Source: a virus
Strand: one strand, 5' to 3'
Length of the DNA stretch: 64,000 nucleotides
IMG/VR virus record: IMGVR_UViG_3300047469_000197
Span: 1-64,000 of that record
The translations under genes were made by a program, and so were the position numbers. The notes beneath the pieces were generated by a model, which ran no database searches, was not told the origin of the DNA, and saw only the letters and a list, made by a program, of their open reading frames with translations. Shown here piece by piece: positions 15,311-46,262 of this stretch (position 1 is its first letter; the number at the start of each line of letters is the position of its first letter).

Positions 15311-15329
15311 ATTCTAAGGAAAGTTACAT
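15311..15329 (-). promoter_or_regulatory. Putative late promoter for gene 23
   Basis: Minus strand ATGTAACTTT-N3-TAGAAT. Confidence 0.6.
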
Positions 15330-15344
15330 CTGGTGAAGGTTGAT

Positions 15345-16125: not shown

Positions 16126-16859
16126 GATGATCCCTTTTCGAGGATGGCCAGAACGGTTGCCGGGGTGATGGCGCTTACAGCAGAACCTACCGCTGTGCTG
16201 CTGATTGATGAGTTAATCAGGGCGACAGAAATAGCCTTGTTGAAAGCGTCCTCCGCTTCGGTAGCGCTGGCCTGCGCTGCCGTCCGGCGTGACTCCAGTG
16301 TGTTTATGGCGCTGGTTACGGTCGCCGTCATGGCATCGGCGGCGGTAACTGCCGTTTGCAGCGCGGTGATCTGCTCGTCCGTAAGTGCGATTGCACCGCT
16401 TAAAGAGGTGTTGATAGAAGCCATGGCCGCGACGATCGCGCTGGTTGAAAACGCCTGAAGTGCAGAAACCAGAGCGGCTGGTTCGGTGGCGTCACCAATG
16501 GCTGCGGAGATAACCAGCTCGCTGGCCACAAGGTTGTTTGCGCGGCAGTAGATATCCCAGCCGTTCGTCAGTTGGATAAGCACGGACGGATCCGCGTACT
16601 CGGTGATCATGGCCGCATAGGTGTTTGCATCTTCCGCGGCGTTCGCCAGGTCATCGCTGCAGCTGGCGATCTGGCTTGTGTAGCCGGTCACGGTGGCCGG
16701 GTAAACGACGGTCGAAAGCACAGTGCCGGTGAGCGTATCGCTCAGGCTTGCGGCGAGCGTGGCGGCTTCGTTGGCGCTGGTGGCACTGGCGGGTGTTGTC
16801 AGCCCACCAGCTGCAGCGAGCGCTTTATAGGCATTGAGTTGATAGGTGCTGGAAAGCAT
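16122..16859 (-). CDS. upfB: UpfB structural protein
   Basis: YQL.AYK.LAAAGG and GWD.YCRAN motifs of P1 UpfB. Confidence 0.85.
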   Translation of the reverse strand: MLSSTYQLNAYKALAAAGGLTTPASATSANEAATLAASLSDTLTGTVLSTVVYPATVTGYTSQIASCSDDLANAAEDANTYAAMITEYADPSVLIQLTNGWDIYCRANNLVASELVISAAIGDATEPAALVSALQAFSTSAIVAAMASINTSLSGAIALTDEQITALQTAVTAADAMTATVTSAINTLESRRTAAQASATEAEDAFNKAISVALINSSISSTAVGSAVSAITPATVLAILEKGSS

Positions 16860-16861
16860 TG

Positions 16862-17146
16862 TTAACCCACATCAAAAGAGGCATCACCGCTTGTTACGGT
16901 TGAGCCACAGGAAACAGGATCGCCCTCGCAAACAACCGCTTTGCCGCCGATGGTGAACCAGGGGCGGGTAGAAACGGCGTTGCCGGGGTGCGTTGATTTG
17001 CCATCTGTGTGCGCCGGATAAGCGTTGCCTTCCACCAGCGCACCAATGCCGTTAATCGTGAAGAAATCCACGCATTCGGCTGGTGGGCGCGAGGAAAAGC
17101 CGCCGTGCCCGGAACACACAGAGTTTTTCGTGCCTATGCCGGACAT
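16862..17146 (-). CDS. upfC: PAAR-type spike tip protein UpfC
   Basis: CSGHGGF..RP, a conserved His and GDPVSCGS, typical of phage PAAR proteins. Confidence 0.85.
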   Translation of the reverse strand: MSGIGTKNSVCSGHGGFSSRPPAECVDFFTINGIGALVEGNAYPAHTDGKSTHPGNAVSTRPWFTIGGKAVVCEGDPVSCGSTVTSGDASFDVG

Positions 17147-17967
17147 TTGCTCGGTTCCCAGCTGATTGGCATCTGGAAAATCTGTTGGTACGCCTCCGGG
17201 TAATCGCGATATTGGGCGCGCTTCATATTCACGAAGGCAGGGATAACGAGTGGTGACTGGTCGATCCGCGCACGCACGGTGGCGAACTCCGGATCGTGCT
17301 CAAACTGTTGCAGGGCGGTGTTGGTATCGCGACCGATGATAATCAGCTGTTGATGAGGCTGGATGGCTGATTGCAGCAGCAGTAAGAATTCAGGAGTGTA
17401 CTGATGGGCGTTGTCGACAATGATTGTGTGTTCATTGCAGATAATGTCCTGGATATGGTGCACGGGCAGATCGGAGAACGATGCCCAGTGAATACCCCAA
17501 TCGGTGTCTTCGTTTGCCCAGAAACCTGTTTCGGTATGGATACTGAAGAGGCTCCAAGCATCAATCATCAGCCATGAGTTGCTTTTTAACATACTCCGGC
17601 ACTGGCCGAGGGTGTTCCGCTGGGGAGAAATGATAAGCGCACGGTGGTTACGGCGGGCGACGGTACGGTGCAGAGCAAATATCGCCGCTGCGGTGCTTGC
17701 GCCGGTGCCTGGAGCATTCAGGATTAGCACGCGCGGGTTAGTCGCTGCAGCATTGAGCATATGCGCCTGAATTTTGCTGATCGCGAGCCCGCTGCACTTT
17801 CTGGCGAACTCAACTGGCGACTGAATCTCATCACGGAATTTGCTGAGCATCATCTCGCCCAGGTGGCGGGCGCGGTTTATACCAATGTCATCAGGGCTGT
17901 CGGGTGTGGCGCCGGGTAGCAGATTATGGTGAACACTTTCGTAGCATTCTTGCATAGGGGAATCCAT
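17134..17967 (-). CDS. Degenerate terminase large-subunit ATPase-domain paralog A
   Basis: Aligns by eye to the PacB N-terminal domain: Walker A GTGAS (K lost), Walker B IIVDNA (E to N), QSPLV..FV; no nuclease domain. Confidence 0.65.
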   Translation of the reverse strand: MDSPMQECYESVHHNLLPGATPDSPDDIGINRARHLGEMMLSKFRDEIQSPVEFARKCSGLAISKIQAHMLNAAATNPRVLILNAPGTGASTAAAIFALHRTVARRNHRALIISPQRNTLGQCRSMLKSNSWLMIDAWSLFSIHTETGFWANEDTDWGIHWASFSDLPVHHIQDIICNEHTIIVDNAHQYTPEFLLLLQSAIQPHQQLIIIGRDTNTALQQFEHDPEFATVRARIDQSPLVIPAFVNMKRAQYRDYPEAYQQIFQMPISWEPSKCPA

Positions 17968-18088
17968 AAATGGGGGCAGGCGTCCATTTTATGGAAAGTT
18001 GCATCTCCACCCGTTAAAAACAGCTGGCATAATGCAGATGCTAGGTGATACTTTGGACTATAGTTACATGTATTAGTTGAGGCCGTTA

Positions 18089-18442
18089 ATGGTTGACCAT
18101 TTAAGTGATCTTCAGAACATGGCACATGAAGTGCGTAAAGTAGGCGGGGTCAGTTCTGACTCGGCAAGATACATAGATTCACGCGTGCAAATGCGTGAGT
18201 TTCGTTCCCGATTAGGCGCTATAGAGAGCATGCCCGGACAGAAGATTAAAGAGCTTCGCGAGCGCCACCAGCTCACTCAGGCCATGCTGGCAGAGTTCAT
18301 GAACCTTTCGACCGTTACGATATCAAAATGGGAGAGAGACGAAAAGAATCCCAATGGCACTGCGTTGATGGTGCTGAATGCGTTAAACGAAAAAGGCATG
18401 CAGGTATTCTCATGGCGAAACAAAAGGGGGAGTGATGTCTAA
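18089..18442 (+). CDS. XRE/HigA-like HTH protein (orphan antitoxin-like)
   Basis: IKELRERHQLTQAMLAEFMNLSTVTISKWERDEKNPNG; GAGG RBS before ATG at 18089. Confidence 0.8.
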   Translation: MVDHLSDLQNMAHEVRKVGGVSSDSARYIDSRVQMREFRSRLGAIESMPGQKIKELRERHQLTQAMLAEFMNLSTVTISKWERDEKNPNGTALMVLNALNEKGMQVFSWRNKRGSDV

Positions 18443-18794
18443 CAAAAATGATCATGTCGAAACGATTCACATGAACACAATATTAGCCAAAGCAGCTCTT
18501 CGCGTTGCTGCCAAAAAGTTAGTTACGGGAACCACGCCCAATAAGGGTGCCGAAGCAGTTAGGCCCGCTGGGGTCACATCTGGCGCTGGTAAAATTATCA
18601 CCTCAGATGCCCCGCTAATTGACAATTCATACCTTGCATCTCAATTAGATGGAGCCGAACCCAAGGAAAAGTCGCGCGATAATGCGTTACTGCGCCTGGC
18701 AATACGGGCGGTGGAACGCGCGAAAAAGCGTGCTAAAACTGAGGCGGACGTAGCTACTTTGTTCAAAAATGCATATATGAAATCCAAAGAGTAA
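18435..18794 (+). CDS. Hypothetical protein
   Basis: Coupled to the HTH gene, GGGGGAG RBS, 119 aa, basic. Confidence 0.6.
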   Translation: MSNKNDHVETIHMNTILAKAALRVAAKKLVTGTTPNKGAEAVRPAGVTSGAGKIITSDAPLIDNSYLASQLDGAEPKEKSRDNALLRLAIRAVERAKKRAKTEADVATLFKNAYMKSKE

Positions 18795-18819
18795 CTAATT
18801 TCAGGGATGGGAGTTTCAC

Positions 18820-19434
18820 TTGGCTACATCTGATAAGTATGTGTTTACCGCTCTTGTAAACGATAAAAATCAGCCTCTGGAATTAATGGCATATGCTATT
18901 TACAAGGCCGATAAGAATGAGATTGCTGAAAGTTTAAAAGCTGCGCAAAAGACTCAGCCACAGATTGAGGCTGAAATTAAGGCGTTTCATGATTTAGTGC
19001 TTAATAGCACCAGCCTTTTGCAGAATTACCACGTGAGAGCGCGTGCACTCGGTCAGAACCTGATTGATGAGCTGAAAGCTGGGGTTGCATCAGACGCGCG
19101 TCAGGATTTCATTGACCGCATGGAGCAGTTGGTTAAGACGGAAAAAAGCTGGTTTCATTACGTTGGCGGATTCGTCATGGATGCCATCAAAGGGGTGCTA
19201 TCAACACTCTTCGTAATTGTGCTGTTTGGTGGGGTCTATTCTTTAACCCTCTCAAAAGACGACAGAGCGGCGTTATACAAAGCCACGGGTCAGTCATTAG
19301 TCGACGCTGCGACGGGTGAGCTGCCCGTTGTTGATAACTTCCGGAACGAAATGGCCAAGAAGAAAAAAGAGCAGCAGGAGAAATCTGACAGTCAACAACA
19401 TGATCAGCCTCCGGTCGCGCGGCCACAGAATTAA
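18820..19434 (+). CDS. Hypothetical single-TM membrane protein
   Basis: TTG start with GGAG RBS; LMAYAIYK motif; TM segment at about aa 125-145; followed by a terminator. Confidence 0.7.
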   Translation: MATSDKYVFTALVNDKNQPLELMAYAIYKADKNEIAESLKAAQKTQPQIEAEIKAFHDLVLNSTSLLQNYHVRARALGQNLIDELKAGVASDARQDFIDRMEQLVKTEKSWFHYVGGFVMDAIKGVLSTLFVIVLFGGVYSLTLSKDDRAALYKATGQSLVDAATGELPVVDNFRNEMAKKKKEQQEKSDSQQHDQPPVARPQN

Positions 19435-19437
19435 AAA

Positions 19438-19462
19438 CAGCCCCAGAATTGGGGCTTTTTTT
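19438..19462. terminator. Bidirectional terminator
   Basis: AGCCCC-agaatt-GGGGCT flanked by A and T tracts, between convergent genes. Confidence 0.8.
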
Positions 19463-20255
19463 ATACCTGCGGGAACTCAGCCAGTACCATTGACCGGAAA
19501 TGATCTGAATCCTCGCCCACTTGCTGGCGAAGCCGCTCAACGCTTCCCATGGAATATCCCTCCATATCCTGCGCAGCCAGCTTTATCCCTGAAAATTGCT
19601 CATCGTCAAATAGCGCCTTAAACGCACCCTGAGCGCTTAGCGGTACTCCGGCGATGATAGATGGCTGATGAGGCCAGATCTTCGCACTGAGGGATTCCAG
19701 CAGTTCATTTGAGCATTGATGCGCGTTATCCACGTAAACGAATGACAGTGCGTTAGTAACCTTCTGGATTTTGACGTCAGTCAGAGTGTCTGGGTGCACC
19801 CATTCGAGCCGGCGATCCGGTGACGCCTTCACCCACACAGCGAACGCATCAAATTGCAGCTGCGCGCTGAGTAGCGGCCATTTGGCTATGAGGCGATGCA
19901 GCAGCTCACGCGTCATGAGGTGGACCGCAGGATCGGGTGAAAAGATATAAGCGCATCCGGTGCGGATAAACAGAAATCGCCAGACGGCATAGGCCGCACC
20001 CAGCATGTACGGGCGGCATTGTTCCGCGTGTGCCAGTGCGATGCGGCTCGGTCCATGGGTGTACGACTCCATCTGCTCTAACACGGGCATGAAAGCCGGA
20101 TCGAGCTTGAGATCCAGATGGTTCGCGCATGCTTCCTTAAATCCCACGCCATAGAGCTGGCTGGGTTCAGTGGGTGCGGTGTCCAGGTCGAAGTGCTCAA
20201 GGACTTTGGCATGTGCACTTTTCACGCCGGGTTTGAACATAGAAATCTTTTTCAT
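19461..20255 (-). CDS. Degenerate terminase large-subunit ATPase-domain paralog B
   Basis: VYVDNAHQ (Walker B remnant) and terminal GEDSDHFRSMVLAEFP matching Pac[17 protein letters not shown]; Walker A lost. Confidence 0.6.
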   Translation of the reverse strand: MKKISMFKPGVKSAHAKVLEHFDLDTAPTEPSQLYGVGFKEACANHLDLKLDPAFMPVLEQMESYTHGPSRIALAHAEQCRPYMLGAAYAVWRFLFIRTGCAYIFSPDPAVHLMTRELLHRLIAKWPLLSAQLQFDAFAVWVKASPDRRLEWVHPDTLTDVKIQKVTNALSFVYVDNAHQCSNELLESLSAKIWPHQPSIIAGVPLSAQGAFKALFDDEQFSGIKLAAQDMEGYSMGSVERLRQQVGEDSDHFRSMVLAEFPQV

Positions 20256-20268
20256 CGTGCCTCAGTAC

Positions 20269-20286
20269 GGCCACCAGCTGGTGGCC
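20269..20286. repeat. Perfect palindrome GGCCACCAGCTGGTGGCC (two opposed Chi sites)
   Basis: Identical copy at 62596-62613, 14-bp core at 59397-59410, partial copy near 34369-34380; all intergenic. Confidence 0.85.
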
Positions 20287-20294
20287 GGTGGTCG

Positions 20295-23200
20295 TCAGAG
20301 AATGGCAATAATGTCGTCTACATCGCCGCGCGTACTGGCATCGCAGCTGATAGCGCGCCTGGCAGTGAACGTCTGCACCTTAAAGCCATGCTTACGGTAA
20401 AGCTCCTTGATGTTTGGTGCGCCACTGTTGGTGATAACGATACGGGCACCACGTCCATGCGCAGCGATACACGCCTCCACCAGAGCAACCTGATGTTCGA
20501 AGTCAAACGCACCTTTGGTGTACGCCGTGAATCCGTTTTCTCCTGGCATCGGCTCATAAGGCGGATCGCAAAACACCACATCACCCGCACCGGCGCGCGC
20601 GATAGTTTCCTCAAATGAACCACAGATGAACTCTCGGTGCTGCTTGCTTGCGGCAAAATGCGCGAGTTCCTGCTCAGGAAAATACGGTTTCGGCTTAACT
20701 TTTTTACACCAGCCGACGTTGAATATCCCTTTCTTGTTGTAGCGACACAGGCCGTTGAAGCAGGTCCGCAGCATCGCCAGGAACAGCGCCGCATGGCGTG
20801 CAGCGGGTGCCTCACGCTCGTTAAACTTATCACGGATGTTTTCATATGCGCTGTTACTGGTGCAGCGCTCCACCAGCTCACGTGCTGCCATGATTACTTT
20901 GTCTGGCCTTTCTTCCAGCTGGCGATAGAGGTTAATCAGATCAGGATTGACGTCAGCCAGAAGGTTATTTTTAAAGCCCATATTCATGAACACGGAACCT
21001 GCGCCCACGAACGGCTCTATAAGGCGATCCCCTTTCGGCATGACTGCGGCGATAACATCCAGATATTTGTACTTACCGCCTGCCCATTTCAGAAAGGGAC
21101 GCTGCCTGCCACCCGTGGCAGCGACGATCGCTGATGCGATTTCTGCTTTCGGCACATCAACCGGGTAGGCAACGCATGGCGCAGAGTCACCTGTTCCCGT
21201 TTCGCCAGCCTCAGCAGTGAGCGTATGACACACATCACCCATATCACCGCGACCGTTACGCGCCACGCGCGTCTGAAACCCGTATGCTTCAGTGGGTGGA
21301 GAATCCGCGTTTTCGGTTTGGGTTTGAGGTAATGCATCCGGGCAAACCTCCGGCTTGGCCACATCTGCTGCTGCAGTGACTGCCCGCCCGATACGCGCGC
21401 CGATCCACTGCATCACCGGCACCGCCATTGAATTACCAATCGCCTTGTAGCGAGGGCCATCAGCCGCCAGGCGGTCAGCCTCATCTTCCGGCATATCAGG
21501 ATGCATTTTACGAAGGTACGCCAGTTCGTCTGCCTTCAGGGTGTTGCGCTTCTTTTCGGGTATCAATGTCCAGCCATCAGGGAAGCCCTGCAAGCGCTCG
21601 CACTCTTTAGGTGTCAGTCGGCGCACATCGAAGCTGGTGAGAACAGTAGGGCATCCCTGACCGGGCTTGCCCCCGCCAGTGGAAAGCGCGCCGGAAATCT
21701 GCCCATCGCCGTTTTCTAATCGCACTTCGCCGCGACTGTTTTCTGCAAAAGCCACGTGAGCCACTGCATGGCCATGTGCGGATTGCAGGGTGAAGCCCGG
21801 ATCACCTTCATTCCCAATCCCGATACCTTCGCGGCTGGAATTGCTGGTGGTAGGTCCGCGCAGCGCCATCAGGGTGCTGATTGGATAGCACTCCAGCGCC
21901 ACCCCCTGAGTGGCGGCTGTATCGATGGTGTAGCTGGTCCCTTCGTCGTTCCAGCCCTTTCCGTTTTGCGCTTTATCGCGGGAGCTTACATCCTGCAAGG
22001 CATAAACAATCGCATTCTCCTGGCCTTGGTTGCGGCCAATGGTGTGCGCATTCTCTACCAGCACATCGGGATCTTGCGTGCCGTGAATAGCCACAACAGG
22101 TGTTCCGCGCCCGGTACCATCTTCCGAGGCATCATGCCCTTCAGCAGTCAGGGTGTGGCTCACTTCGCCCGTAGCGCTCTGCACAGCAAACGTCTCGACG
22201 TCGAAATCATTACGCTGGCCTTTAGCCGTCAGGCATGCCGCGATTTCGATAGAGCCGGAGCAGTTGCCGCCGCCAAACGCGGCCACCAGCCCGCTGCCGC
22301 GTTGGGCAAAGACTTCCTGATTGCTCGCACCGATCCCGCCCGTGTTGTGAGACTGGTTCAGCGTAGGGTGTGGGTTAAGTTCGGAGTCCCAGTGGCTACC
22401 ATTTCGAGTGCCCTCTGTAGCAGCTGCGGCAACTTGCGCCCCCGGTTTTCTGCTCGGCGGAGAATCCCGGCGCACGCCGTCGAACTCAAAAAGTATTTCT
22501 GCGGGATCAATTTCGTTTCGAGCACTTGCGACAACGAACACACGACTGCGGCGTTGGGCCACGCCGAGGTATTGGGCATCAAGGATTCGCCAGGCCACTC
22601 GGCGCTGTCGTCCATAAACACAACCCGACTTTGGCCATTTAACGACGTGTGCATTGGCGTCTTTGTTCCAGCGCCAGAACTTGCTGCTTTTGGTTTGTTC
22701 AGGTCGCTCACCAGGTGTGAACGGCTCGCTTTCTCCAGCCAGTCCGGCAAGGAGGTATCCAAAGGCGTTGTCTTTGGTGCTGAGACTTCCTGGGACGTTT
22801 TCCCAGACGTGGATTGCTGGATCTTTGCCTTCTTCGGCACGTTTTTCGTCGATTGCATTTGCGATATCTACATAGGAGAGGGTGAGCTGGCCGCGTGGGT
22901 CTTTAAGGCTTTGCCCTAAGCCTGCGATAGAAAACGCCTGGCACGGTGTGCCGCCTACCAATACATCTGGCGCCGGAGTGATGCCAGTACGCACGGCGGC
23001 TGCAATTTTTGTCATGTCGCCCAGGTTAGGCACCTGCGGAAAATGATGATCGAGTACAGCTGCAGGAAACTTTTCGATCTCCGCAAACCATGCCGGCGTC
23101 CATCCCAGTGGGTGCCACGCAACGCTTGCCGCTTCGATGCCGCTGCATACCGATCCATAGGTCATTGCGCCAAATGTCTTGGCTAATGTCGCCTCCATAG

Positions 23201-23384
23201 ATTCGCGTACCCATTCAACCGGATCCACATCAGATTCAACTGTGATAGTGGCGGTGCCCGATAGGTTAAGCGGGGGCAGTTCTGGCTCGCCGCTGGAATC
23301 GACCTCCGGCGCATTGCTTCTGCCGAAATGGACGGCCTTACCATCAAGTGTGAGGCAAATTAATTCGCCTTTTAGCTTTAGCAT
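20295..23384 (-). CDS. dmt: Bifunctional Dcm-like (C5) plus Dam DNA methyltransferase Dmt
   Basis: C5 motifs SVCSGI, GGTPCQ, WENV, AQRRSR, RRLTPKECERLQGFP, KAIGNS; Dam motifs KWAGGK, EPFVGAG, DPPY. Confidence 0.92.
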   Translation of the reverse strand: MLKLKGELICLTLDGKAVHFGRSNAPEVDSSGEPELPPLNLSGTATITVESDVDPVEWVRESMEATLAKTFGAMTYGSVCSGIEAASVAWHPLGWTPAWFAEIEKFPAAVLDHHFPQVPNLGDMTKIAAAVRTGITPAPDVLVGGTPCQAFSIAGLGQSLKDPRGQLTLSYVDIANAIDEKRAEEGKDPAIHVWENVPGSLSTKDNAFGYLLAGLAGESEPFTPGERPEQTKSSKFWRWNKDANAHVVKWPKSGCVYGRQRRVAWRILDAQYLGVAQRRSRVFVVASARNEIDPAEILFEFDGVRRDSPPSRKPGAQVAAAATEGTRNGSHWDSELNPHPTLNQSHNTGGIGASNQEVFAQRGSGLVAAFGGGNCSGSIEIAACLTAKGQRNDFDVETFAVQSATGEVSHTLTAEGHDASEDGTGRGTPVVAIHGTQDPDVLVENAHTIGRNQGQENAIVYALQDVSSRDKAQNGKGWNDEGTSYTIDTAATQGVALECYPISTLMALRGPTTSNSSREGIGIGNEGDPGFTLQSAHGHAVAHVAFAENSRGEVRLENGDGQISGALSTGGGKPGQGCPTVLTSFDVRRLTPKECERLQGFPDGWTLIPEKKRNTLKADELAYLRKMHPDMPEDEADRLAADGPRYKAIGNSMAVPVMQWIGARIGRAVTAAADVAKPEVCPDALPQTQTENADSPPTEAYGFQTRVARNGRGDMGDVCHTLTAEAGETGTGDSAPCVAYPVDVPKAEIASAIVAATGGRQRPFLKWAGGKYKYLDVIAAVMPKGDRLIEPFVGAGSVFMNMGFKNNLLADVNPDLINLYRQLEERPDKVIMAARELVERCTSNSAYENIRDKFNEREAPAARHAALFLAMLRTCFNGLCRYNKKGIFNVGWCKKVKPKPYFPEQELAHFAASKQHREFICGSFEETIARAGAGDVVFCDPPYEPMPGENGFTAYTKGAFDFEHQVALVEACIAAHGRGARIVITNSGAPNIKELYRKHGFKVQTFTARRAISCDASTRGDVDDIIAIL
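22358..22858 (-). CDS. Nested out-of-frame ORF resembling a C5-MTase beta polypeptide
   Basis: SLSQVLE..IPQKYFLS..AC.GILRRA..RG motif in a different frame inside dmt. Confidence 0.55.
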   Translation of the reverse strand: MQSTKNVPKKAKIQQSTSGKTSQEVSAPKTTPLDTSLPDWLEKASRSHLVSDLNKPKAASSGAGTKTPMHTSLNGQSRVVFMDDSAEWPGESLMPNTSAWPNAAVVCSLSQVLETKLIPQKYFLSSTACAGILRRAENRGRKLPQLLQRALEMVATGTPNLTHTLR

Positions 23385-23662
23385 CAGACGCTATCTCCAT
23401 ATAAATATTGCTTCTGATAGCCACGTAATATCCGGCAGGCTTCGATTTCGTCAGCGGTCAGGGGAGTGCGTCGAAAGGCATGTTCATCCTCGATGCGTTG
23501 CAGAAGGCAGTGAATGTAATGCCTGGTCGCAGCATCTCTTTGCATGCCGGAAACTTCCTTAGCGAGCACCAGAAAATCAAGCGTCTCTGCCTTGTTTGTA
23601 GGCGCAGCATTGAACCAGGTAGGCATTTCTTTAGAGTTAGTCATGATTACGGCTTTAGACAT
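23384..23662 (-). CDS. Hypothetical protein
   Basis: Stop/start overlap with dmt; RBS present. Confidence 0.6.
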   Translation of the reverse strand: MSKAVIMTNSKEMPTWFNAAPTNKAETLDFLVLAKEVSGMQRDAATRHYIHCLLQRIEDEHAFRRTPLTADEIEACRILRGYQKQYLYGDSV

Positions 23663-23671
23663 ACCCGTTCC

Positions 23672-24586
23672 TTAGCGCTTGGCTTCGCCGCCAAGTGCTG
23701 CTGTCAGGTTATCTACCAGCGCCACCAGCTCAGCTCCCATTAGGAGAATGTCTGCGCTGGCCCGCAGTGCCACATCTTCGCGGTCAATGTCGTCGTTCTG
23801 ATCGCGAAGGGAGTCGCTAAACTTAATCCCGGAGATGAAACCGCCATCATCAATCACAAATTGGACACGCTCCTGCCAGTCCAGTGCCAGCTTGGTCACT
23901 AGCTTGCCAGCGTCCAGATGCGCGCCGATTTCGTCGCTCTGTAGATCCTGTTTATTGCAGGTGATAATGCCACCAGCCTCAAGAAGGGCTTTGAGCTGTG
24001 CACGCTCCCCCATGGTGAAGCCTGCGGGGATCTCGCCTTCTTTAAGCCATGCGGTAAGCGTCAGCTCAATCGGGGTTTCCATGGTGAGGGGGATAACCGG
24101 AAGGGATCCAAGCGATTTACGGATGAGCGCCAGCGCGTTCTCTGACTGCTTTGCCGAGGCGTTAATGAAGATGCGACGACCGTCCAGATCGAACAGGACA
24201 GCCGTGGTGCCATACCGTGAGAATGCGCGAGGGAGTAAGGTATGCAGCACCTCATCTTTGAGCGAATCCTTTTCGGTCTTCTTGAGCTTGCGGCCCTGTG
24301 CAGCCTCCATTTTCTTGATTTTCGCATTGAGCGCTTCCGTGCGGACGTCAGTCGGCAGAAGTTTCGTTTCATGCTTAATCAGCGCCATCATGAAACCGCC
24401 TTCACTGTGTACAAGGGGGCCGTCATTGTCGCGGGTAATGGGGCTGATGAAGCCGCTGCGGGCGATATCCTGCGAGCCACAAGGTGTAAACCGGAAGGCT
24501 TCGCACTGCTTAAGCACGTCCTCTACATTGAGGGGGATATCGCGGTTAAGGCGGTAGGCAGATAACGAACGGAATTGAGAGAACAT
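23672..24586 (-). CDS. hrdC: Recombination-associated RdgC homolog
   Basis: FTPCGSQD..RSGF, LKDEVLHTLLPRAFS and GKLVTKLALDWQER motifs. Confidence 0.95.
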   Translation of the reverse strand: MFSQFRSLSAYRLNRDIPLNVEDVLKQCEAFRFTPCGSQDIARSGFISPITRDNDGPLVHSEGGFMMALIKHETKLLPTDVRTEALNAKIKKMEAAQGRKLKKTEKDSLKDEVLHTLLPRAFSRYGTTAVLFDLDGRRIFINASAKQSENALALIRKSLGSLPVIPLTMETPIELTLTAWLKEGEIPAGFTMGERAQLKALLEAGGIITCNKQDLQSDEIGAHLDAGKLVTKLALDWQERVQFVIDDGGFISGIKFSDSLRDQNDDIDREDVALRASADILLMGAELVALVDNLTAALGGEAKR

Positions 24587-24873: not shown

Positions 24874-24892
24874 GACATAGTATACTAAATTA
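24874..24892. promoter_or_regulatory. C1 operator-like motif overlapping a -10 box (TATACT)
   Basis: Reverse complement AATTTAGTATACTATGTC upstream of the hrdC-dmt operon. Confidence 0.55.
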
Positions 24893-24931
24893 ATTATTAG
24901 CCAGACAGTTTGAAGCGTTACCCCTGTTTTT

Positions 24932-41389: not shown

Positions 41390-42889
41390 TTAGTCCTTGA
41401 GCCAGTCCAGCGCCTCATTACGGCGGCTCTCATCGGCCCTGCTGATCACCTCGTTCGCCGGGATGTAATCTGCCAGTTGAGTAAAGCAGAAGGTATCCCA
41501 GTGATCGGGCGATTTCAGGTTAAGCTTCGCCCTCATCTGCTCTTTAGGCATGCACACCCATTGGCCTGCCTCATTGAGAAATACCGGGATTTTGCTCGCC
41601 TGGTCAGTGGTTTTCCCGCCCTTATCAAATTTCATACGGCCCTGTCGCACGGCGTTGGCCGCATAGACGTTTGCATATGCACGCTGGTTGATGAACCGCT
41701 TACGCAGCTCTTTGTTGTGAAGCGGGAAGCCCCATCGGATGCGCTGCGCAATCACGCCGTGCTTCTCTTCCAGTACGTCCGCCGTTGTGGCACCCACGCC
41801 ATCTCCATCGATAACAATCGTGATGTTCGGGTACACCTCCGGATCACATTCGCTGTAGATGTAGTCCGCGAAACGTGACGGGGTCACGGTGGATTCCATT
41901 TCCAGCACCTTAAATGGCACCACGCGCCGGTGTTTTCCGTAGCCACTGATGCGGAATATTGAGAGTACCGACTTATCGCGACCGTTACCCACGTCGCAGC
42001 ACGCCACCCAGCCCCAGCCCTTAGCCAGGTATACATTACGCCGCATTGCGCGATCGCAGTCGTCACGGCCCAGCAGGAAGCCGGATATGGAGGATGGGAA
42101 CTCACCGCGCACCTTGATGAGGTATTCCGGATTCTCCCGCCCGCCGTAGTCCACCAGCTTTTCCCGGATGAACTGCAGCGTAACCAGTGGCGACTCTTCG
42201 CTGTTGAGGCGGATCGCCCTATAGATGCCGTTCGGGTTCTCCGGAGTGACAGCCAGGCGGTGATGTGAGTCATAAAACTCCCCGCTGGTCCGCGTGGGCT
42301 GCGAGATGAGCAACAGGCGGTTATCTTCCTGCGTCAATGCGCCCTTGATGAAGCCAAACGCCTTATCTGATACGCCGGATGCCTCATCGATAATGTAAAG
42401 CAGGTGTTCGGCGTGTTCGCCGGCTAGCGCTTCTTCGTTACCCAAGCGGAAGCCTTTGGGCACCACTTCCCATGCACCCTTAGACTCGGTGGCGAAAAAC
42501 ATCATGTCCGTGAGCGTGAAGTACTGATTCAGCCACGGGAAGCGCTTAAGGCAGACTTTCCAGTTTTCACGGAGGTACTTGAATATCCCCGTCTTAACCT
42601 GCTGCAGCTTGTTCGCCACGATAATGACGCGGGCGCCGGGGAAGAACAGCATGTAGCAGAGAATCATGATTGAGGTCATATCTGACTTTCCGGTACCGTG
42701 TCCGGAGGCGACCGTGGTCTTACTGCCTCCTTCCTGTACGGCCTCAATAATCATTTCCTGCTGCCATGTCGGGATCTTGCCAAACATCACTTCTGCGGCG
42801 CTGATCCAGTCGTATCGGTACAACAGAACCAGCTCCTGCCAGCGCGGGTCATCTAATACCGAGCGCTTAGCCTTATTGCTGGTGGCCAT
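41390..42889 (-). CDS. pacB: Terminase large subunit PacB
   Basis: Walker A SGHGTGKS, Walker B IIDEA, nuclease DVGNG and SPD.WD. Confidence 0.95.
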
Positions 42890-44102
42890 CGTCTACATCT
42901 CCATACAGATGGTTGTTAATCTCTTCGTCCGGCTCTTCACCATCAGCAAAGTCCGGCATCAGGTTCAGGTCATTCAGTGAGCCGTCAGCGGACACGTCAC
43001 CCGCCCCCATGTCGTCCACAATCACGTTGACGGCTTCCCGCTTCTCGGCCAGCGTGATTTCTAACTCGGCCATACGTGTGGCGCGCTGCTCACGTGCGCG
43101 GCGATCCAGCTCTGCCAGGTCAACAGGCTGTGAGTTAATGTCTTCTCCTGCCCCTTCTTTCATCTCTGCGCGGGCCAACTCCAGCAGCAGAGAAGGAACT
43201 TTGAAGCCGTTCGCCTCGATGTAGATGGCTGTTTCCATGGCGGTCCACTTCTCTGCCTTGCGGCGTGCGTAAGCCTCCATCACACGCTCTGGCTCTGAGA
43301 GTTTGCGCAGGTGGAGCTGCTGTTCGCGTTGGTCTTTGGAATAGCTCTGGCGGAGTCCGGCCATGGTGCGGGCGGTATCGTTGATGCTGGCTGCGGCTGC
43401 AGCGAGAACGGAAACGGCTTTGTTGATGGTGGGCGGCTCATCCTCGCCGGGTACGTGTTCTTCCAGGTGGGCGAGCATTTCAGTAACCGCGCGCTCAAGG
43501 GCAAACTGATTAACGAGGGCGCTGCGTATCATTCTCGCCTCAATGTCATCGACACCGGCGCGGCTCATCAGCGCCTCGGCTTCCGCGAGATCGTTGTCGT
43601 CCGGGACGAGGGCACCAACCAACACCTGGCCGCCAGCTTTACTCTGATCACCGGCGCGCCCCGACTTGGTCTTTTTGCCGACAACATCCATCAATTGTCC
43701 CGTGAGCACACTCGCGGGCGTTTCAGCACCGGGGGCCGTGTCGCGTGCCTTGGCGGCGCGCACCTGCTCACTTAACGCATTGATTTTACTGGCGGTGGTT
43801 TCCCGCTCGCCCACTGAGGTTTGATCACGCTTGTGATCAGTTTTGCTTTTGCGATCAATTGATCGCGGAGGTGTTTTTGATCGCGAAACTGATCGCGGGG
43901 CTGTTTTGGAGGCAGATTTAGCTCCCACCTGACTGGTTCCCACGCCCAGGTTACGGCGGGCTGTGCCGTGATTTAAATCATATAAATCAGCATATTCCTT
44001 TATCGTAACGTCCTGCTTCTGCCTCATCTGGGCTAGGCGTTCTCTGTGTTCATTCCAGTCCGTTTTCACTTCGCGATCACCGTCTATTACTACGTTGATC
44101 AC
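42873..44102 (-). CDS. pacA: Terminase small subunit PacA
   Basis: N-terminal HTH ([18 protein letters not shown]), A.YIEA.G.KVP; overlaps pacB. Confidence 0.88.
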
Positions 44103-44160
44103 CGATTCTATTGATCGTTACATCTGCCGTGATCAAGGTTTTCTCGCACCCGGTGATCAC
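43820..44160. other. pac site (clustered TGATC(A/G) repeats)
   Basis: Two GATC clusters, at about 43822-43885 and 44074-44159, at the pacA 5' end, like the Dam-dependent P1 pac site. Confidence 0.8.
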
Positions 44161-44287
44161 GTTCTCGCCATTTGTCGGACGAATTACCGTTATTTTGTTG
44201 CAATTTACCCGACATTTCGTAAGATGAACCCGCAACAATCAATCAATCACTTATGTAATTCGCTTAAAAGTTAGGGAAAATTTAGAT

Positions 44288-45394
44288 ATGACTAAAAGTG
44301 CACAAACCCCTGTTTTCGTTGCTGTCGATGGTGGCTCAGGCAATATCGCAGTGCGTTACACCGACGATCAGGGCAATGACGTCTTCAAAATTTCACCGTC
44401 ACTCATTCGCCGTGGCCTGCTTCAGCAGGGTACGCAAGAATCTACTTCGACGTGGTTGACCGCCGATGGTGCGCTGTTCTCGGTTGTTGACGATGGCACC
44501 AGCATGGAGCTGGAGAACACCTGTGACACCATTTACCAGCTGTCTGCGCAAAACCGCGTCCTGGTGCTGGATGCACTGGTTAAAGCGGGCCTGAGCGGTC
44601 GTGACGTGGTTATCGCCGATACGCTGCCTGCCGATCAGTTCTATGGCGACAACGGCATTAACTACGCCCGCATTGAGGAAAAGAAAAAGAACCTCATGCA
44701 GCCGATCACCAGCTACACCGGTGCCATTAAGCCGCCGCGCGTTATCCACTCGGTGATCATGCCGGAAGCCGTTACCGCTTACGTCAGCGCCAGCGTCAGC
44801 CCGGACGGCACGCTCAACCCTGCGTTCGAAGGCGTGACGCGCTGCATCATTGTTGACCTTGGCCGCTTCACCTGCGATATCGCCGTGGTAAACAGCTCGC
44901 TTGACGTCCTGAACCGCATCACCACCGAGCACGGTATTCACGTGATGGTTCAGCGCCTCTATCACCTCATCCAGCTGCATGAGAAGGAGCTGGGCCTGAG
45001 TGAGTCCAAAGAGCTTAATATGGCGTCTATGGATGGCTTCATTGAGCGCGGCTACATTGGTTCACAGGCAAAAGCCCGCGAAGCACACCGTAAAGATATC
45101 CGCCCTCTGATTTTGCAGGCGGCGCAAGAGCTGGCTGAACAGATTAAGAGTGACATCCGCGCGGTGACGCACGGTTTCGCTGATGATATCGATATGCTGC
45201 TGTTTGTTGGCGGCGGGGCTAACTGGCTGGGCGGTGCGCTCGAGTTCGTTGGCGATCTGAGCAGTGACTGGCACGACTACACCCATATTCCGGCTCACCC
45301 GGAGCGGGCTGTCGTTGATGGTGCATTCCTCATGCTGGAGCAGCGTAAGGCGCACATCATGGCCGAGCTCACGAAGCCCGTAACGGAGGCGTGA
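44288..45394 (+). CDS. parM: Actin-like partition ATPase ParM/StbA
   Basis: VAVDGGSG, MPEA, IVDLGRFT.D and FVGGGA actin-fold motifs. Confidence 0.9.
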   Translation: MTKSAQTPVFVAVDGGSGNIAVRYTDDQGNDVFKISPSLIRRGLLQQGTQESTSTWLTADGALFSVVDDGTSMELENTCDTIYQLSAQNRVLVLDALVKAGLSGRDVVIADTLPADQFYGDNGINYARIEEKKKNLMQPITSYTGAIKPPRVIHSVIMPEAVTAYVSASVSPDGTLNPAFEGVTRCIIVDLGRFTCDIAVVNSSLDVLNRITTEHGIHVMVQRLYHLIQLHEKELGLSESKELNMASMDGFIERGYIGSQAKAREAHRKDIRPLILQAAQELAEQIKSDIRAVTHGFADDIDMLLFVGGGANWLGGALEFVGDLSSDWHDYTHIPAHPERAVVDGAFLMLEQRKAHIMAELTKPVTEA

Positions 45395-45884: not shown

Positions 45885-46262
45885 TCGTGATCGTCCCATC
45901 AGTGAAAGGGCAAGGCGTAATATTTCGCTCTCTGCCCTTTCCTTCTCATCATCGCTCATCAGCATTACCGTCCGCCGCCTTGGGTCGATCCGTTCCGGAT
46001 TGCGACAGCGCTTAAAAAAGGCATCATCCAGGTGCTTGAGGTGGAAGGTTCGCGGCCTGACAGTATCATCAACAATACAGTCCGAATTATGCGATTTCGC
46101 GATAGACAGCATACGTAAGTACACTTCGCTAACCGACGAACGGTATTGTGGATAACGCTTTTTCAACCCTTCTGTAACCTCTCTGGCGCTGGCTGGTCTG
46201 CCATGCTCAATGAGGTACTGCGAAATCTCCCACGATGTAAATCTCTTGTGCTCGGCTGCCAA
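45873..46262 (-). CDS. lpa: Late promoter activator Lpa
   Basis: TS.EI..Y.I, SA.E, VYLR...IA.S, DD..RPR.F and DEKER. Confidence 0.85.
   Translation of the reverse strand: MAAEHKRFTSWEISQYLIEHGRPASAREVTEGLKKRYPQYRSSVSEVYLRMLSIAKSHNSDCIVDDTVRPRTFHLKHLDDAFFKRCRNPERIDPRRRTVMLMSDDEKERAESEILRLALSLMGRSRLAR

Follow-up and report, generated by a model that had tools for sequence, protein, structure and literature searches.

Probable catalytically dead relatives of the large terminase ATPase domain form a conserved gene pair in a small clade of P1-like phage-plasmids

We analyzed positions 1-64,000 of the virus record IMGVR_UViG_3300047469_000197 (64,000 nucleotides; hereafter the window), focusing on two open reading frames on its minus strand that resemble the ATPase domain of the phage large terminase (TerL). 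ORF A (17134-17967) encodes 277 amino acids from its first ATG (273 in the database gene call, which starts at 17955) and shows a P-loop remnant, GTGAS, a Walker B sequence VDNA and no nuclease domain. ORF B (19461-20255) encodes a 264-amino-acid paralog in which the P-loop is erased and Walker B again reads VDNA. Both are ATPase-domain-only relatives encoded besides a complete and functional TerL, PacB (41390-42889, minus strand; motifs GHGTGKS, IIDEAS, ISQPT and RGEFP), which served as our reference for comparison. An earlier sequence-only reading of this DNA had described the two frames as intact and A as coupled to upfC, and both statements hold: the start of upfC (16862-17146, minus strand; a PAAR protein) overlaps the end of A by 13 nt (17134-17146). 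Net charge and isoelectric point of the two proteins are unremarkable.

A and B are related to each other, both in direct comparison (BLASTP E 9e-10, 26% identity over 159 residues) and at the level of their family alignments (hhalign 97.3%, E 2.5e-11). The sequence-only reading had further aligned both by eye with the element's own PacB over its ATPase domain. Pairwise, this alignment is marginal for A (E 0.015, 22% identity over 219 residues, collinear) and was not recovered for B, for which BLASTP against PacB gave no match; homology to TerLs was nevertheless established through profiles. Both proteins weakly match phrog_5902, the PacB N-terminal family (matched by the element's own PacB at 3e-126), at collinear positions. 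We then searched 1.84 billion (1.84e9) protein representatives by hmmsearch with a joint profile of 11 A and B sequences, which returned 132 matches at E<=1e-3. The family itself came first, followed by about 120 proteins that, from rank 13 onwards, are mostly 440-510 amino acids long, with some shorter ones (E 6.7e-12 to 1e-3). In the TerL matches, the alignment is confined to the N-terminal ATPase part (about residues 20-270), and all ten of the matches examined are large terminases (phrog_5902 and phrog_2, with weak Terminase_6N/6C). The homology of A and B to PacB-type TerLs is thus far beyond chance.

Other sequence searches yielded little. Pfam gave only sub-threshold DEAD, AAA_19 and PhoH matches for A and nothing real for B, and sequence profiles of the PDB gave no significant match for either. 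No sequence similarity to records of the phage collection was detectable (by tblastn, no match for A and only E 0.06 to Clostridium phage TerLs for B). In PADLOC-DB, A had only sub-threshold Cas3-helicase P-loop matches (E about 0.01) and B had none.

Structure prediction places both proteins in the same family. AlphaFold2 models, built from 66-row alignments that include TerLs, are of high confidence (mean predicted local distance difference test, pLDDT, 90.9 and predicted template modelling score, pTM, 0.88 for A; 90.0 and 0.86 for B). In the models, A and B adopt the ATPase fold of the additional-strand-catalytic-E (ASCE)/RecA-like type with a lid subdomain. The sequence-only reading had proposed a structure search for a TerL or P-loop fold, and in Foldseek comparisons of the models with the PDB, terminase ATPase domains rank first for both proteins: Sf6 gp2, T4 gp17, P74-26, HK97, D6E and the Avs3-bound PhiV-1 terminase lead, and the top 16 (A) and top 21 (B) matches are all terminases, ranking above NAT10 and helicases. 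Top matches in BFVD are nearly all TerLs, and the ESM Atlas neighbors are Terminase_6N clusters (score 0.97). The model of B covers residues 3-255 of P74-26, which is the whole crystallised ATPase domain. At 264-277 amino acids, neither A nor B has a C-terminal RNase H-like nuclease domain, and their models stop where the crystallised ATPase domain ends, in agreement with their earlier description as nuclease-less.

The active site has been dismantled within this fold. In a 66-sequence alignment of A, B and TerLs, which confirmed the motifs quoted from the letters alone, the TerL Walker A motif SGxGxGK[TS] is replaced in the A family by APGTGAST, CPGAGGTQ, SPGCGIQE or APETGATT; the Walker A lysine is gone in all six A-type proteins, and the P-loop is entirely absent from the B family. 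Walker B, hhhhDEASG in TerLs, reads IIVDNAHQ in A and VYVDNAHQ in B of the window, and hhhhD[N/C/D]AHQ and hhVD[N/K/E/A/Q/S/G]A[H/Q/E] in the A and B families, respectively. Its aspartate is kept in both families, and the catalytic glutamate occurs only in one B-type protein (P0007). Neither family keeps the TerL basic residue (basic-TA) and PExxQGxH stretch before Walker B. The coupling motif IGNPT of TerLs has become IGRDT in A and AGVP[L/M]S in B. The basic column aligned to a TerL arginine-finger-like residue is not conserved, in a region where the alignment is uncertain. The claim that the catalytic motifs are degenerate therefore stands, as the Walker A lysine, the Walker B glutamate, the QGxH stretch and GNPT are lost in both families.

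Signatures outside the active site have fared differently. A keeps the N-terminal SPVEFA helix motif and QSPLV (ESPLV in PacB). B retains the lid/linker motif GEDSDxFRSxVLAEFP: where TerLs read YGxDSDxYRVRVLGEFP, B reads VGEDSDHFRSMVLAEFPQV and then stops, its end lying two residues past the motif at the ATPase-nuclease boundary. Overall, A and B resemble the ATPase domain of PacB or 'terminase B' proteins in profile score (E down to 7e-12), in fold, including the lid, and in the shared non-catalytic motifs (N-terminal PxxF helix, hhhhD strand, DSPxV and GxDSDxYRxxVLxEFP). They differ from it in lacking the nuclease, in the loss of the catalytic motifs, in evolving 4-5 times faster and in carrying extra N-terminal extensions. 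These extensions are specific to each family (MFKPGxKS in B, LLPGA...NRxRHxG in A), absent from TerLs, conserved and modelled at low confidence, and they have the look of partner-binding peptides. Taken together, A and B are almost certainly dead homologs of the TerL ATPase domain.

The pair is rare. Word-indexed searches of 5.8 billion clusters found four A-type and seven B-type clusters, to which the exhaustive profile search of the 1.84e9 proteins added a few family members. Named sources are Pantoea sp. CCBC3-3-1 (96-kb plasmid), Chimaeribacter californicus, Nissabacter sp. SGAir0207 (101.9 kb), Enterobacter hormaechei and E. soli (90-95-kb contigs). Of some 800 genomes sampled from the order and family, two carried A and B. 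In the plasmid collection, the Pantoea plasmid was the sole match; a locus search of viral and genome contigs with the B family found nothing, and one with the capsid protein as query recovered only Chimaeribacter and a provirus copy from Pantoea. The pair is intact and syntenic in three complete elements of 95-102 kb: the parent record of the window, the Pantoea plasmid and G706, whose contig matches Nissabacter sp. All three share the order hrdC, dmt, B, opposite-strand genes, A, upfC, upfB, spanins, capsid. In Chimaeribacter, whose assembly is fragmented, A and B lie on separate short contigs. No internal stops were found in A or B of the window, Pantoea, Chimaeribacter or G706. A comparison with P1 upheld the statement that P1 has no such pair: there, a divergent dmt promoter directly follows upfC, with no counterpart of A or B.

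For the ancestry of the pair, we built a tree of ATPase domains from A (6 rows), B (9 rows) and TerLs, with 15 near-full-length A and B homologs aligned. A and B are each monophyletic (Shimodaira-Hasegawa-like approximate likelihood-ratio test, SH-aLRT, 99) and lie together on one side of a branch (SH-aLRT 96), which agrees with the single origin and subsequent duplication suggested from the letters. Their internal branching is congruent, with Chimaeribacter basal, followed by Pantoea and then the window. The element's own PacB sits elsewhere among the TerLs on a long branch and is not nested with A and B. Local hidden Markov model (HMM) scores of the A and B profiles point the same way: other TerLs reach 40-60 bits, own PacB only 1.5-4.7 and P1 PacB 3-10. 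These scores and the position of PacB in the tree lend no support to a recent copying of the resident pacB, although the low similarity of PacB to A and B may stem in part from PacB's own divergence and long branch. Given the tree grouping, the congruence and the HMM scores, the simplest history would be one truncation with inactivation, followed by one duplication, before the clade diversified. The pair is old, has been inherited vertically and has stayed intact in a single small clade of Enterobacterales P1-like phage-plasmids.

Within this clade, A and B change faster than their neighbors. Compared with Pantoea, amino acid identity is 86% for PacB, 81% for the capsid protein, 78% for upfC, 64% for PacA, 61% for hrdC and 53% for dmt, and only 44% for B and 43% for A. 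Compared with G706, the values are 78% (capsid), 78% (upfC), 57% (hrdC), 63-69% (dmt, two segments), 33% (B) and 30% (A). The rate of nonsynonymous substitution (dN) is 0.57 for A and 0.53 for B, compared with 0.10 for PacB, 0.14 for the capsid protein and 0.31 for hrdC. Relative to PacB or the capsid protein, A and B change at 4-5 times the rate. A dN/dS comparison had been suggested as a check for pseudogenes. Frames are intact and omega is below 1, but synonymous divergence (dS) is saturated (>=1.3); an exact omega is therefore not obtainable, and the ranking by dN alone is usable. Frame length is constant at 236-289 amino acids in all 15 aligned homologs, with identities down to 30%. One B-type protein from a Logan assembly (P0013) has an unrelated N-terminal stretch of 95 residues, a deletion in the region of the Walker B strand and a garbled C-terminus, and some database fragments of the family look garbled or frameshifted. 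This suggests a degraded copy or an assembly error in the case of P0013, and gene loss is possible in some elements.

The expression signals differ between the two genes. P1 late promoters consist of a -22 box and a -10 element (LP23, LPpac), and the capsid and pacA genes of the window carry GATGTAAC..TC..TAGAAT. A P1-type late-promoter-like motif, GATGCAACTTTCCATAAAAT, lies ~20 nt upstream of A (17986-18005, minus strand), and the motif also precedes the capsid gene (15311-15330) and pacA (44105-44124) and possibly occurs at 1512-1531. Its version here, GATG[T/C]AAC..TC..TA.AAT, has three exact matches in 64 kb against 0.02 expected, with the proviso that the degenerate motif was defined partly from the very sites it then matches. 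The motif is found upstream of A in Pantoea and G706 as well. Since it is kept there although the proteins are only 30-43% identical, and since the window encodes a homolog of the late activator Lpa (45891-46250; 38% identity to P1 Lpa), A is very probably a late gene that heads an A-upfC-upfB operon.

B, in turn, ends the hrdC-dmt operon: it comes 39 nt after dmt and carries a GAGG Shine-Dalgarno sequence of its own. That operon is C1-controlled in P1, and by this analogy B is probably an early gene. A sigma-70 scan of 16800-20500 found no promoter. The dmt-B spacer holds a perfect 18-bp palindrome, GGCCACCAGCTGGTGGCC (20269-20286), placed after the dmt stop and ahead of B's Shine-Dalgarno sequence and start; it is identical at the dmt-B junction of Pantoea (locus L001, 5294-5311). 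As RNA, it would form a hairpin of -23 kcal/mol without a U-tract, and it could be an operon-internal attenuator, a stabiliser or a protein-binding site. The window holds three copies (20269-20286, 62596-62613 and 59395-59412), two exact and one with three mismatches, against 0.03 expected, and each lies just past a gene end. Downstream of B, a bidirectional terminator-like hairpin (19439-19456) separates its stop from that of the opposite-strand cassette, and Pantoea has a similar one behind B.

The fold is complete but none of the catalytic motifs is left, from which we infer that A and B probably act by binding and not by catalysis. We favor the reading that they are terminase mimics that bind competitively, with a probability of roughly 0.6. 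By their simplest history, they derive from a PacB-family large terminase whose nuclease domain and ATPase chemistry were lost before its gene was duplicated. As mimics, they would occupy a partner that normally engages a TerL ATPase domain. Since A and B are accessory, outpace PacB 4-5 times in evolution and resemble their own PacB no more than other TerLs, this partner is most likely itself fast-evolving; candidates would be a terminase sensor or inhibitor of the host, or parts of the packaging machinery of a competing phage or satellite. The conserved PacB motor would be a less probable target. Expression of B would be early, from the hrdC-dmt operon, and that of A late, from an Lpa-type promoter and together with PacA and PacB, so that the two between them would span the whole lytic cycle.

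We are more hesitant about the nature of the partner and would give somewhat less than an even chance to its being one of these conflict-related candidates. In favor of a conflict are the accessory status of the genes, their speed relative to the conserved PacB, the lack of any special likeness to PacB and their position beside a low-GC cassette. We give a low probability to a bolder form of the idea, in which A and B would be natural terminase mimics in a molecular conflict that either absorb or blunt host sensors reading the TerL ATPase core, as TerL-shaped anti-defence proteins, or enter and stall rival phages' or satellites' packaging complexes, leaving the element's divergent PacB alone; as a third variant, they would be obligate dead subunits of a hetero-oligomeric packaging motor. 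As to mimicry of one particular rival's TerL, the TerLs nearest to A and B are generic 'terminase B' proteins from many hosts and point to no specific target.

Several observations weigh against mimicry. Neither protein has an above-threshold match to a PADLOC defence model. Avs2 and Avs3 are reported to sense TerL through its ATP-bound active site (PMC13601566); A and B have no such site, so the best-known terminase sensors are unlikely targets. The alignments used for folding contain TerLs, and the fold match is thus not fully independent of the sequence match. Fast evolution could also reflect relaxed constraint. Finally, the operon of structural and lysis genes that A heads shares its promoter type with pacA, an arrangement just as compatible with a part in the phage's own morphogenesis.

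In the strongest rival explanation, A and B would regulate or assemble the element's own packaging by binding PacA, pac DNA, PacB or the portal. They would tune the timing or frequency of pac cutting, or be non-hydrolysing subunits beside PacB. Besides the late-promoter motif that A shares with pacA and the capsid gene, this explanation draws on the place of B at the end of the Dmt-encoding operon. Cleavage of P1 pac depends on Dam methylation, and the leader of pacA is GATC-rich here. The full domain architecture, including SPVEFA in A and GEDSDxFRSxVLAEFP in B, could preserve partner surfaces, and PacA itself is a fairly fast-evolving candidate (64% identity to Pantoea, 27% to P1). However, P1 and most P1-like elements package their DNA without A and B, PacB is 86% conserved where A and B reach 43-44%, the two proteins show no specific similarity to own PacB, and B sits in an operon that is early in P1. 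On balance, we give a role in own packaging a chance only slightly below that of a conflict-related partner.

Less probable still is that A and B are RecA-like scaffolds neofunctionalised outside packaging, with a partner such as the helix-turn-helix (HTH)/membrane-protein cassette, RdgC/Dmt or the PAAR tail-tip module. The window and G706 share synteny over the five-gene block from B through the cassette to A, as Pantoea does in part, A is translationally coupled to upfC, and both families have conserved N-terminal extensions that TerLs lack, all of which would suit such a role. Yet nothing speaks positively for any one alternative partner, the cassette differs in GC content and lies on the opposite strand, and the TerL-specific motifs kept outside the active site suggest contacts of the TerL type. 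As for functionless, decaying remnants of a second terminase gene, the loss of all catalytic motifs, the high amino acid divergence, the frameshifted appearance of P0013 and the garbled fragments might suggest them, but intact frames of constant length (236-289 amino acids) in all 15 aligned homologs, high-confidence predicted folds, conservation of the promoter, the Shine-Dalgarno sequence and the terminator, congruence between the A and B phylogenies and a dN well under the saturated dS make them highly improbable.

Few phage proteins are as conserved as the large terminase, and it is one of the main proteins targeted by the pattern-recognition immunity of bacteria (Avs1-3, Upx). Avs2 and Avs3 recognise TerL active-site residues together with bound ATP, whereas Upx binds the unfolded TerL ATPase core irrespective of catalysis, the ATPase domain alone being enough (PMC13601566). 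A role for A and B as classical Avs2/3 decoys is therefore less likely, because they lack the residues and the ATP that these sensors read; as Upx reads the core independently of catalysis, some sensor interaction may be possible. The closest known protein is T4 vs.8 (Evans et al. 2026, PMC13601566), which is TerL-ATPase-like, stands alone, has intact Walker motifs and activates EcAvs2. It resembles A and B in being a phage-encoded, ATPase-domain-only TerL relative present besides the real terminase, and differs in that its Walker motifs are intact and it belongs to the gp17 family, whereas A and B are dead, paired and of the PacB family. Ksap2 (Bas60_220), which activates KpAvs2, has a weak TerL-ATPase resemblance (Bechon et al. 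2024, PMC11564622) and is, as A and B are, a small, taxon-restricted phage accessory protein resembling the TerL ATPase domain. Immune triggers are thus known among standalone terminase-like accessory proteins, T4 vs.8 and Ksap2 both activating Avs2.

In the literature searched, we found no paper on dead or paralogous terminases; a dead, paired and conserved standalone form is not described there, and T4 vs.8 is the nearest case. A further parallel comes from oligomeric P-loop ATPases. The delta and delta-prime subunits of clamp loaders are dead paralogs of an active ATPase that keep its fold but not its ATP chemistry and act via protein contacts. The likeness has limits, as a place for A or B in a ring with PacB would be conjectural and P1-type motors work without them. 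If A and B are mimics, they would show how a phage exploits or protects the terminase fold and would provide a simple reagent for probing binders of the TerL ATPase domain; if they are packaging regulators, they would represent the first case of a terminase with pseudoenzyme partners. In either case, the family is small and well defined, and it resides in plasmid prophages of Enterobacterales that are tractable in the laboratory.

The surrounding element is P1-like in gene content and order. The parent virus record comprises 95,130 bp with inverted terminal repeats and is rated 100% complete, and no near DNA relative of the window was found among deposited phages. Amino acid identity to the P1 proteins is 59% for the capsid protein gp23, 61% for PacB, 27% for PacA, 38% for Lpa, 58% for upfC and 42% for upfB. 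On the minus strand, the order is hrdC, a 92-amino-acid ORF, dmt, B, three plus-strand ORFs, A, upfC, an upfB-like gene, two spanin-like ORFs and the capsid gene. The genes upstream of B in its operon (20295-24586, minus strand) are hrdC (RdgC), the 92-amino-acid ORF and dmt (a Dcm and Dam methyltransferase of 1029 amino acids); on the same strand, upfC is followed by an upfB-like gene, spanin-like genes and the capsid gene. Between B and A, the opposite-strand cassette (18077-19434, plus strand) encodes an HTH_3 regulator, a 120-amino-acid protein of unknown kind and a 204-amino-acid protein (phrog_25194), at a GC content of 45-50% compared with 55%. The genes for the 204-amino-acid and HTH proteins also lie between B and A in G706 (locus L020, about 8729-9808), and the former is weakly conserved in Pantoea, which argues that the five-gene block is old.

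The terminase partner subunit PacA (phrog_1711; 42873-44102, minus strand) is encoded behind a late promoter motif and a GATC-rich sequence. In this pacA leader (44105-44290, minus strand), several TGATCA/GATC elements lie by the late promoter and resemble the methylation-controlled pac site of P1. A homolog of C1 (40463-41365, plus strand) has only 29% identity to P1 C1, and a scan of the window with the P1 C1-operator consensus found no credible P1-type operators. An AT-rich sequence related to the C1 operator, TGGCTAATAATTAATTT (24887-24903), occurs once, upstream of a uhr-like gene. Dmt itself (20295-23384, minus strand) has 1029 amino acids here compared with 754 in P1; its Dcm-like and Dam domains align with those of P1 and relatives, and its middle (roughly residues 335-760) has no match in G706 and varies among elements.

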